This document shows positions 49,380 through 51,106 of a stretch of DNA of 64,000 nt, in pieces. The DNA lies in sequence record PV682554.1; one strand, 5' to 3'. This DNA comes from Escherichia phage 92CQ. Below the pieces are notes generated by a model. That model had not been told where the DNA came from, did no database searches, and worked only from the letters and a program-made list of their open reading frames with translations. Within the stretch, counting starts at the first letter, position 1, and each line of letters opens with the position of its first letter. The position numbers were made by a program, and so were the translations under genes.

Positions 49380-49586
49380 ACCTAAATAAAGATGATAGCT
49401 TTTACCTATCAAAAACGTTCACCGAAAAAAGTGAATAGATCGCGGTATCGAGCTAATCAAGGAGCAGATGAACAACCATACCATGAAGATCATAAGGCGC
49501 TTACAACGTGTTTTAGACCGCTTATTTTTAATTTCTCAATGTAACTATCGGGCAAAAACAGCCTTTTTCTTGTCTTTCCTCTTAAA

Positions 49587-49659
49587 TGATAATCATTCTT
49601 ATTTATAGCTGATTATTTATGCAATAAACTGCATAATGCAATAATGATAATCATTCTTA
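49587..49659. promoter_or_regulatory. two identical Fur-box-like 15-mers (TGATAATCATTCTTA) 58 bp apart
   Basis: Copies at 49587-49601 and 49645-49659 within AT-rich non-coding DNA; ATGCAATAA direct repeats between them. Confidence 0.45.
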
Positions 49660-50047
49660 ACTTATGACCATCTAACCTATAAAATAATAAGTTATCTAAC
49701 TAAATTAAAGCTAATTATTTCACCTTTATTTATAACTTACTGTTACTATCTCATTGATAACCTTATATTAAACAACAATAACTAATATAAATCATTACTA
49801 AGCTAAATATAATCTATCTAACCTTTAAAACTATAACTATAATCTATCGAATTGTTGCACAAAGTAACTATTAAATTGTTAGTAACATTACTAAATAACT
49901 AGTATCCTATCTATTTATGATCTAACCTTTATCTTCCTATCTATTACCTAAGTAATCATTTCATACATAATCATTTCATACAACAACTATAACAAGAAAT
50001 ATAATTCGCAAGCGTATCATTAGCAGCCTATGCCGGACACATAGGCG

Positions 50048-50193
50048 GCTAATAATAACGCAACTACACACCCCACATAATAACCATCACCGATAGTTAT
50101 TATTTGTGCTTATGTAGCTTGCAACAATTGCAAGCGCAACAATATACAAGGTATATTGTATCCCTTACATTGTTGCGGTGCGTTATTATTAGC
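50048..50193. repeat. long-range inverted repeat (GCTAATAATAACGC ... GCGTTATTATTAGC) enclosing TTGCAA-rich palindromes
   Basis: 14-bp perfect arms about 118 bp apart; internal CTTGCAACAATTGCAAGCGCAACAAT. Confidence 0.45.
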
Positions 50194-50256
50194 TAATGTT
50201 TGGAACATTGGCTATAATATAAGCTACATATAATAAGCTATTCAATAATAAACATC

Positions 50257-50285
50257 GTGAACAATGACATGAGTGAACAATGACA
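50257..50285. repeat. tandem direct repeat GTGAACAATGACA x2 (3-bp spacer)
   Basis: Two exact 13-mers followed by a GC hairpin at about 50300-50320. Confidence 0.5.
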
Positions 50286-50535
50286 CTGATGATCATAATG
50301 CGCCACCTTCCAGGGGGCGCTATGTGAACACAAAGAAATCTTTCTTGTCAAGAAAAATATCACTACTATTGCGCAAAATTATTTATATCTGAATAGATGA
50401 TTTTTCATACTATTGCCCCTATACACTACCTCATTTGTTGCGTATCCCTATTTGTTGAGCCTATTCTCTTAAAAGCGCAATAAATCAGAATTATCTTGAT
50501 TTTTAGTGCGTTTTATAGTATAGAAAATATGCAAA

Positions 50536-50550
50536 TGATAATCATTATCA
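50536..50550. promoter_or_regulatory. exact match to Fur-box 7-1-7 core (TGATAATCATTATCA)
   Basis: Perfect palindrome; embedded in ATGCAAATGATAATCATTATCAGC. Confidence 0.5.
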
Positions 50551-50716
50551 GCTATCTTCCACGGGTGGCACTATTTCACGCCAGATCATTTCATTTGGCA
50601 AGGTGTAGATAGATGTTTAGAAATGCCAAGCCATTGATTTACTTAGAATTTATCTGTTTTGTTGTGAGTAGTGCCTTTCTTGCTCAGAAAATAATCAAAA
50701 GTCTTATAAGTCATTG

Positions 50717-50746
50717 AATGATAATGCAAATGATAATAATTCTCAT
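50717..50746. promoter_or_regulatory. Fur-box-like array (AATGATAATGCAAATGATAATAATTCTCATT)
   Basis: GATAAT hexamer repeats; shares ATGCAAATGATAAT with the 50529 site. Confidence 0.45.
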
Positions 50747-51106
50747 TGATATTTGAGGGGGACGGTCGGCAGAAATCGGGGGGCGCTAAAAATCGCGTTA
50801 AGCACCTCTCGCAAGCGAGCAGTATTTTGCGGCAAGTTATTGATATTATTGACTTTACGCCTATGAAAAGGGGGTGTGTCGAAATAAATCGGGTATACCG
50901 GAAAATTTTTGTGGCATAGATATTTATTTGTCTATATTATGTACAAAGGGGTGTGTTAAAAATATTAGGTATATATAGAATAATTGATAGGGAAATCCTA
51001 TACTAATTCCTCTATTAATGATGTTTCTAGGTTGCTGTTCTTGTAATAGATGAAAAGACGCTATATGATGTGTGGCATGAAACGTAAATTTATAAAGGAG
51101 TCTGAT

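Follow-up and report, generated by a model that had tools for sequence, protein, structure and literature searches.

We analysed a 64,000-nucleotide stretch of Escherichia phage 92CQ (sequence record PV682554.1; the whole stretch is referred to below as the window) and in particular a 1.7-kb gap in its gene array, at positions 49380–51050. An initial annotation made from the letters alone had suggested that this gap might be a replication origin, a packaging site or a major transcriptional switch. The second of these suggestions was borne out by comparison with relatives, since the gap contains, at 50458–50800, the ortholog of the terminal duplications of phages phi92, BME3 and Klebsiella phi1_175008. 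The gap is thus very probably the genome-end, or concatemer-junction, region of a phi92-like phage and includes its direct terminal repeat (DTR). Two conserved layers appear to be embedded in this putative control region: palindromes of Fur-operator quality and a 180-nt fold on the minus strand. A DTR junction is a known kind of feature; what is new is that the Fur boxes are shared with the injection-stop region of phage T5 and that a covarying element lies beside the repeat, and for both of these we infer a function.

The 1.8 kb around the gap is 92–98% identical to about 50 Justusliebigvirus genomes (47 records span the region), the closest relative being Escherichia phage EC_OE_11 at 98.2% identity, and the source of the window is a phi92-like myovirus (Justusliebigvirus, Stephanstirmvirinae). 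From the annotation of relatives, the left neighbour of the gap is Phi92_gp248 and the right neighbours are Phi92_gp002, gp004, gp005 and gp006; the first and the last base of the phi92 record therefore both fall within the gap. The features that carry the argument are listed here.

50458–50800, plus strand: direct terminal repeat, 343 bp, one copy, placed by orthology to the terminal duplications of relatives
50454–50468, plus strand: left DTR boundary motif, tttGTTG^AGCCTATTCTC, a putative terminase cleavage site
50797–50810, plus strand: right DTR boundary motif, gcGTTA^AGCACCTCTC, a putative terminase cleavage site
49585–49661, unstranded: palindromes A (49585–49603) and B (49643–49661), 58 bp apart, flanking a dyad
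50534–50552, unstranded: palindrome C, a AATGAKAATNATTMTCATT-type match located 76 bp in from the left DTR end
50717–50747, unstranded: palindrome D (50729–50747), with no mismatch to AATGAKAATNATTMTCATT, and an upstream half-site; the palindrome ends ∼53 bp short of the right DTR end
50018–50197, minus strand: conserved structured element of 180 nt, defined by cross-genus conservation, covariation and a covariance model

Three records place the repeat. The phi92 record has an annotated DTR-L (1–343) that equals its last 343 nt (DTR-R), and this sequence maps to 50458–50800 of the window. The BME3 record has an exact 342-bp prefix that is repeated as its suffix and maps to 50458–50799; the BME3 paper gives a DTR of 342 bp from PhageTerm. 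Klebsiella phage phi1_175008, which belongs to another genus and is only ∼70% identical, has an exact terminal duplication of 343 bp with boundaries that align with those of phi92. More generally, the genomes of Stephanstirmvirinae have been described as ending in DTRs (PMC12695924, 2025). By homology to the three records, the virion DNA would have its left physical end at 50458 and its right end at 50799/50800. The window carries a single copy of the DTR, between the homologs of gp248 and of gp002–006, which points to a circularised or concatemer-type assembly that crosses the junction.

A GTTR^AGC..CTC motif is found in the same orientation at both boundaries of the repeat in the window, in phi92 and in the Klebsiella phage. 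We infer that GTTR^AGCNNYTYCTC is the terminase cut site. In the scheme that we propose, the genome would begin at the first motif and be completed at the second motif of the next junction, and the layout from left to right would be the right-end terminator, ∼1.1 kb of non-coding DNA, the DTR at 50458–50800 and an early-gene leader of ∼300 bp. The DTR is already annotated in phi92, and locating it here mainly corrects the reading of a region that had seemed 'empty'; many public records of Justusliebigvirus are opened at arbitrary points.

Inside the DTR, a segment of 109 bp (50567–50675) is inverted in pEC-M2929-1AR.1 (fetched-locus 2537–2645). In the window this segment is flanked by a 7-bp inverted repeat, GGCACTA / TAGTGCC. 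The inversion is probably also present in vB_EcoM_AMO3598, which has an equal record length and equal match coordinates; all other relatives have the orientation of the window. At 50648 the sequence ATCTGTT matches the class II pause motif of T7, but a 7-mer such as this was judged, by estimate, to occur by chance.

Fur-type palindromes in and beside the repeat

The initial annotation had reported Fur-like sites in the gap. As a description of the sequence this is accurate, with matches far above the level expected from shuffled sequences. We used a palindrome consensus, AATGAKAATNATTMTCATT, the 19-mer Fur consensus, GATAATGATAATCATTATC, and the 7-1-7 inverted repeat, TGATAATnATTATCA. With two mismatches or fewer, AATGAKAATNATTMTCATT gave seven sites in the window compared to 0.03 in shuffles; with three mismatches or fewer, the 19-mer Fur consensus gave four matches compared, again, to 0.03. 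The sites with up to two mismatches in the gap are at 49585, 50534 and 50729, and the site at 49643 has three mismatches. A second cluster, at 39066–39177, has four sites with up to two mismatches plus a weaker fifth (four mismatches) at 39142.

The best match to the Escherichia coli Fur consensus is seen at palindrome C, where the frame 50531–50549 agrees at 17 of 19 positions and contains a perfect 7-1-7 core, TGATAATCATTATCA, at 50536–50550. This is the exact Fur-core palindrome named previously, and it occurs once in the window. The frame 49640–49658 agrees with the Fur consensus at 16 of 19 positions. The two identical 15-mers of the initial annotation were likewise recovered (TGATAATCATTCTTA, at 49587 and 49645, with no other copy in the 64 kb), whereas the GATAAT 'array' at 50717–50746 is present but comprises just two GATAAT copies, at 50720 and 50732.

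The positions of the palindromes are conserved in four other genera or subfamilies. Palindromes A and B lie 0.8–0.9 kb to the left of the DTR, with a conserved dyad, TTATGCA-N6-TGCATAA (49617–49636), between them; the pair is also spaced by 58 bp in KP13-26 and has equivalents in ZCKP1, ESCO5 and TH18, a member of the Vequintavirinae. Palindromes C and D lie inside the DTR. Equivalents of palindrome C, or of the boxes within the repeat, are found in ZCKP1, ESCO5, Citrobacter phage Tr1 and Klebsiella phages, and in a Klebsiella phage the equivalent of palindrome D is ∼52 bp from the right end of the DTR. At least two myovirus subfamilies share operator-grade Fur boxes at conserved positions.

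The 15-nt core recurs unchanged on E. coli plasmids, 33 bp upstream of iucA, and this plasmid sequence has the GAGAAT half-site variant too. A 40-mer containing this half-site, which we take to be the aerobactin operator, was found at 100% identity on more than 600 plasmids, at the same distance from iucA. The Fur-footprinted sites that Chen et al. (2007; PMC2189734) used include the iucA promoter, and Fur sites occur in clusters (PMC2189734).

The same palindrome is found well beyond the relatives of phi92. An exact-pattern scan of IMG/VR gave at least 120 contigs, and 56 of the 119 loci that were fetched had at least two sites within 400 bp (17 had at least three). In T5 (AY587007), the features 'direct repeat C copies 1–4' and 'palindromes E–I' (9473–9637) are the same motif, which is present four to five times in 165 bp; the array lies close to the 7.9% nick, on its left, within the injection-stop region, and its copy at 9577, AATGAGAATCATTATCATT, is the identical 19-mer to the window site at 39089. 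The T5-like Salmonella phage SP01 has at least seven palindromes in tandem beside DnaA boxes (fetched-locus 4870–5070). An unrelated 62-kb IMG/VR contig without a match in the phage database (3300026512_000013; fetched-locus 2200–2800) has nine copies in a 1.9-kb AT-rich non-coding stretch, together with DnaA-type boxes (TTATCAACA twice and TTATGCACA once).

The occurrence of identical 19-bp palindromes in unrelated phages suggests that they are bound by a host protein, and the sequence matches would make Fe-Fur dimers the most likely one. None of the boxes overlaps a good sigma-70 promoter, the only overlap with −35/−10 elements being a 9/12 minus-strand candidate at box C. Since the boxes are off recognisable sigma-70 promoters, an architectural, end-associated or Fur-titrating role is favoured over classical repression. 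In a bolder and less probable reading, Fur would be bound to arrays at the genome ends or terminal-repeat boundaries of phi92-like, rV5-like, T5-like and other virulent enterobacterial phages. There it might protect or tether the ends or act as a roadblock, or its titration might de-repress host genes for iron and nucleotide supply.

Pfam and PHROGs searches near either palindrome cluster for a phage-encoded Fur or helix-turn-helix protein returned nothing informative. In the literature we found no relevant report of Fur boxes in virulent phages; a preprint on a host screen with 255 phages makes no mention of fur, and Davison, writing on the T5 injection-stop region, discusses DnaA boxes and never mentions Fur. 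Positionally conserved Fur-type boxes in a DTR region appear to be undescribed. If Fur does bind them, the global iron regulator of the host would be a shared phage host factor, and the sixty-year-old question of why T5 DNA entry stops at 7.9% would gain a simple and testable candidate.

The surroundings of the second cluster were also inspected. It belongs to a second non-coding AT-rich module (38627–39440), in which three tandem repeats of ∼62 bp (∼38830–39040) are followed by five Fur-type palindromes (39066, 39089, 39118, 39142 and 39159); the DNA at 38.7–39.1 kb, beside the cluster, is the second AT-richest of the window. In the adjoining stretch 39158–39942, identity still reaches ∼92% in Phapecoctavirus, Klebsiella and Acinetobacter-labelled relatives, much more than in the intergenic DNA nearby; a minus-strand ORF of 88 amino acids (39441–39707; phrog_19316) lies within this stretch. 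The part at 39190–39440 is GC-rich, and a strong promoter-like sequence on the plus strand, TTGACG-17-TATTAT, was found by eye near 39819. A search of the 39-kb non-coding region against Rfam gave no real match, with chance-level snoRNA and miRNA hits only when the search was relaxed.

A conserved 180-nt fold on the minus strand

Across genera, the gap can be aligned in four islands: 49300–49650 (terminator, leader and two palindromes), 50000–50197 (the folded element), 50450–50550 (left DTR boundary and palindrome C) and 50700–50830 (palindrome D and right DTR boundary). The intervening stretches 49662–50017 and 50200–50450 are lineage-specific. The folded element itself, 50018–50197, is conserved throughout the subfamily: relatives in Phapecoctavirus, Klebsiella and Citrobacter phages, as well as metagenomic contigs, have it at ∼80% identity, and its flanks cannot be aligned. 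The initial annotation had noted an inverted repeat here, around TTGCAA-rich palindromes. The repeat is present and perfectly complementary, with arms at 50048–50062 and 50179–50193, although the arms are 15 bp long rather than 14 and are separated by 116 nt rather than 118; the TTGCAA palindrome, GCTTGCAAcaaTTGCAAGC, is present as well.

To compare the strands, 21 distinct sequences were aligned and folded with RNAalifold in each orientation. The plus strand gave 39 pairs and −49.9 kcal/mol, and all 16 of its broken cells were A.C or C.A. In contrast, the minus strand gave 47 pairs and −58.0 kcal/mol, with compensatory changes at 13 pairs and no broken cell. Every alignment cell on the minus strand pairs (987/987), values that were reached by none of 500 shuffles, and pairing fell to 27–52% in a control where the partners were slid. 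The wobble cells (58, at nine pair positions) without exception read as G.U in the minus-strand orientation and as A.C in the other. The window copy folds on the minus strand with −81.6 kcal/mol (z = −7.8).

Besides a closing stem of 15 bp, the predicted structure has several hairpins: one is variable, one (GCUUGCAA-UUG-UUGCAAGC) is invariant, one covaries and lies within a UACAU/GUGUA helix, and one, GCCUAUG(UGUCCGG)CAUAGGC, is the 3′ hairpin. A covariance model found exactly one copy per genome, at 163–184 bits, including the Klebsiella phage locus that had been left out of model building. The distance from element to repeat is 272 bp in the Klebsiella phage and 261 bp in the window. Rfam 15 gave no match in the whole window at the gathering threshold, and the best hits over the element in a relaxed search, at 15.7–18.7 bits with E >3, are at chance level. 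A literature search found no transcriptome for this phage group. The 180-nt element appears to be undescribed and without a known family.

On balance we lean towards a leftward-transcribed structured RNA, because the G.U pairs sit mid-stem in short A/U-rich stems; it is possible, with clearly lower probability, that the same fold is adopted by single-stranded minus-strand DNA. A leftward transcript would lie directly upstream of the AT-richest DNA and might prime or open that DNA for leftward replication. Another role that the element might have is in terminal-repeat processing. Tentatively, the two layers may be read together: the element would be a new RNA family or single-stranded DNA signal for the ends of DTR myoviruses, and Fur would have been recruited by unrelated virulent phages. 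The comparative support for the folded element is unusually clean, making it a target for mapping and mutagenesis in an easily grown coliphage.

Weighing the alternatives

A number of observations speak against a genome-end region with Fur boxes and a leftward RNA. The termini of 92CQ are taken from its relatives, and the ends of some records may have been set by alignment to phi92 and not independently. In the BME3 record (PP239276), the 'DTR-L' feature (146957–147298) sits 73 bp off the record's own 342-bp duplication. The palindromes have no overlapping good sigma-70 promoter, and another protein of Fur-like specificity could bind them in place of Fur. For the folded element, the strand asymmetry becomes smaller when it is counted conservatively, over helices predicted on both strands, at six pair positions against zero. 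On the minus strand, no sigma-70 promoter conserved across clades was found upstream, and the 3′ hairpin is followed by neither an intrinsic terminator nor a U-tract. The stems of two hairpins with loops of only 3 nt never vary, and the element has GCTAAT-type repeats on its flanks; these features also fit an element that acts at the DNA level.

Two candidates were rejected in this context. The annotated DTR of BME3, which maps to 50531–50872, is excluded as the true repeat by the terminal duplication of the same record and by phi92; its misplacement had made a Fur box appear to be the exact terminus. N bases and a further, incomplete copy of the junction are also present in the BME3 record. 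The second candidate, a conserved sigma-70 promoter that would serve the minus-strand element, was rejected because no placement was consistent across clades.

Of the other explanations, the one that survives best is that the region is, or includes, a replication origin, which we regard as possible but the less probable reading. Here unwinding would occur at 49585–50017, an initiator would be bound by the palindromes and by the GCTAAT-type repeats, and the strand-specific fold at 50018–50197 would be a single-stranded DNA priming signal or a primer transcript. The base composition is relevant to this idea: taken together, the region that the initial annotation called AT-rich is so to a mild degree only (GC 0.321 compared to 0.377 for the whole window), but the block 49585–50017 has a GC content of 0.22 and holds the AT-richest 300 bp of the entire window. 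The existence of two modules that combine the AT-richest DNA with a palindrome cluster (49.6 kb and 38.8–39.2 kb) keeps the origin idea alive. It is also consistent with the limitation of the fold to one strand and with iteron-like repeats around the element in relatives (GGTATTATTAGC three times in KP13-26 and, as direct copies, TTATTGTGTC five times in the TH18 gap). GCTAAT-type repeats are only modestly enriched (six compared to one expected), and T5-like phages and contig 3300026512_000013 have the same palindromes adjoining DnaA boxes.

However, no DnaA or DnaA* boxes were found in 49380–51050 and no cluster of them elsewhere in the window, the region shows no enrichment of GATC, and none of the genes next to it codes for a replication protein. 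The T5 origins map mid-genome and not at the equivalent repeats (Davison). Cumulative GC skew, which had been put forward as a check, did not favour an origin here: the minimum is at ∼34 kb, where gene orientation flips, with only a local dip at this region. The same confounding of GC skew with gene orientation was described by the authors of the rV5 study.

It is unlikely that the palindromes are classical operators, at which host Fur would repress in iron-replete cells so that early or leftward transcription would be iron-responsive. The sequence matches are of operator grade, boxes C and D are upstream of early genes, and the 9/12 minus-strand promoter-like site at 50571–50544 overlaps box C and has an identical sequence in phi92. 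This would be a leftward promoter, GTGCCA-16-GATAAT, with its −10 in box C, reading toward the folded element. However, the arrangement is not kept in the Klebsiella phage, and boxes A and B have no plausible −35/−10 partner (both read by eye). The T5 arrays are at the injection-stop and nick region rather than on a mapped promoter. Promoter-like sites in the region are no more frequent than in shuffles (16 compared to 14.4), and none of the sigma-70-like sites inside it reaches 10/12, which also leaves the proposed major transcriptional switch unsupported.

We consider it still less likely that the folded element consists only of palindromic sites at which a protein, such as the small terminase subunit or another phage protein, binds double-stranded DNA, with the covariation and strand bias arising as by-products of the evolution of symmetric sites. 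Such sites could account for the pairs that never vary (12 of the 15 in the closing stem and seven of the eight in the TTGCAA hairpin), for the recurrence of the arm motif GCTAAT(A/G)AT nearby in both orientations and for the conserved location 260–270 bp from the terminase cut site. Symmetric sites, however, conserve sequence, whereas three helices here swap G-C/C-G, U-A/C-G and A-U/G-C while their loops stay fixed. Every single-sided change is G.U on one strand, at nine positions against zero (six against zero in the conservative count), and arms of 15 bp that are 116 nt apart are beyond the reach of one dimer.

It is very improbable that the gap conceals small protein genes, such as a 46-aa ORF (49468–49608) or a 57-aa ORF (50746–50919), even though some automatic records annotate three to ten 'hypothetical proteins' there and the 46-aa ORF, preceded by an AAGGAG ribosome-binding site, is unbroken in all close relatives: its ATG and Shine-Dalgarno sequence are gone in ESCO5, ZCKP1 and KP13-26, where the nucleotide sequence can still be aligned, the 57-aa ORF straddles the DTR boundary, and the curated records of phi92, PATM, arall and inny annotate no gene in the gap. 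With its start and ribosome-binding site unconserved in other genera, the 46-aa ORF was rejected and is probably not a gene. In agreement with the initial annotation, 49380–51050 is free of ORFs that reach 60 aa; after the 57-aa ORF, the largest is one of 50 aa (49392–49544).

Flanking sequences and comparison with known systems

The remaining features of the region and its borders are as follows.

48954–49337, plus strand: last right-end gene, the phi92 gp248 homolog (Gp30.8-like), from Pfam Phage_30_8 (E=5.8e-29) and the annotation of relatives
49353–49371, plus strand: intrinsic terminator, AGGGCGC-acaaa-GCGCCCT followed by TTTCTTTTT, found by a terminator scan and closing the right-end transcription unit
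49380–49584, unstranded: conserved non-coding leader, 70–80% conserved across genera, including the start of the 46-aa ORF
49662–50017, unstranded: AT-rich block of short direct repeats (GC 0.228), with ATCTAACCT, TCCTATCTATT and two copies of TAATCATTTCATAC
50257–50285, plus strand: tandem pair of GTGAACAATGACA, single-copy in phi92 and pEC-M2929
50801–51106, plus strand: leader of the first early gene, with two AAGGGGGTGTGT(N11-12)GGTATA copies, from 50868 and 50945
51107–51442, plus strand: first early ORF, 111 aa, phrog_2510, with no Pfam match

The gp248 homolog has a strong promoter of its own, TTGACA-17-TATTAT (48879–48907; 11/12). The terminator that follows it is annotated as such in phage PATM and is kept, with an altered loop, in Phapecoctavirus, Klebsiella phages and TH18. 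On the other side of the DTR, the sigma-70-like sites in the 50801–51106 leader are weak, the best being TTGTAA-17-TATGAT at 51041–51069. The slot from 51107 onward is occupied by different ORFs in arall, inny, PATM and phi92, and this variation in the first genes after the DTR among close relatives marks the left-end early region as a hot spot of gene exchange. A AAAAGGGG(G)TGTG motif occurs three times on the plus strand of the window, at 38654, 50868 and 50945. Each copy opens a non-coding leader directly downstream of an A/T-rich, weakly promoter-like stretch, and the motif may be a transcript 5′-end mark or a phage-specific promoter element.

Among the repeats named initially, the tandem repeat was confirmed as two copies of GTGAACAATGACA, at 50257 and 50273. 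The 50250–50300 bin is a hot spot of variation within the genus and, as the copy number varies, the tandem arrangement is probably non-essential. The short repeats were borne out in part: CTATC is enriched (12 compared to ∼3.4 expected by length), whereas TAACC is not (five compared to 3.6). The repeats at 49662–50017 cannot be aligned between genera and are partly annotated as repeat_region in phages arall and inny. ARAGORN found no tRNA or tmRNA in the window. Four records of ∼146 kb labelled 'Campylobacter phage' (A150, A145, C3 and A110a; MG065639 and others) are ∼94% identical to the region; these are probably mislabelled or contaminant assemblies.

The closest known system is the pair of DTRs of phi92 (PHI92_DTR-L and DTR-R; FR775895 / NC_023693), of which the window has the ortholog, with 97.6% identity over the repeat and the same flanking genes; the repeat length is 342 or 343 bp in the three records. 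In the records examined, the 1.1 kb to the left of the repeat, the folded element and the palindromes are all unannotated. T7-type phages are alike in that each junction holds a single copy of the repeat, the ends are precise and the flanks are non-coding. T7 itself reportedly uses an inverted repeat near the junction as a hairpin intermediate (Chung, Nardone and Hinkle 1990). In contrast to such a hairpin, the fold in the window has several helices, is 260 bp from the repeat and is specific to one strand, from which rightward copying of the repeat would not be primed.

The terminal region of the Vequintavirinae (rV5, LL12 and TH18) has the same order of terminator, conserved leader and two Fur-type boxes ∼60 bp apart. 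In TH18 these are followed by long inverted repeats containing AATAACGC and TTGCAA dyads, analogous to the window; the homologous gap (fetched-locus 3850–4260) has a 15-bp inverted repeat, GCGACACAATAACGC, and a 16-bp TTGCAA-containing dyad. A DTR of 459 bp lies in non-coding DNA of the rV5-like phage LL12, and a 'non-coding' box is mapped in rV5. The subfamily differs in that the match of TH18 to the covariance model is weak, at 24 bits, and the right-hand genes are convergent. A 14-base pattern scan for a Vequintavirinae covariation set gave mostly chance matches and only one related contig.

Compared to the E. coli Fur operator, that is, the 19-bp box and the primary operator of iucA (aerobactin), the window has a perfect core, the same half-site variant and the same clustering. 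In contrast to the classic operator, its boxes are off recognisable promoters, in a virulent phage, and occur close to the ends of the DNA as well as in another AT-rich module. The T5 Repeat Region 3, or injection stop signal, belongs to an unrelated phage family with a terminal repeat of 10 kb, and its array is near the inner boundary of that repeat, with the 7.9% nick and paired DnaA boxes as neighbours. In T5-like phages such pairs, set within large inverted repeats (IRD'-spacer-IRC'), are a defining feature, whereas 49380–51050 of the window has no DnaA boxes, and two-step injection is a feature of T5 that is not known for a phi92-like phage. What the two share are arrays of AATGAGAATCATT-type palindromes in a long, untranslated, repeat-dense region associated with a terminal repeat.

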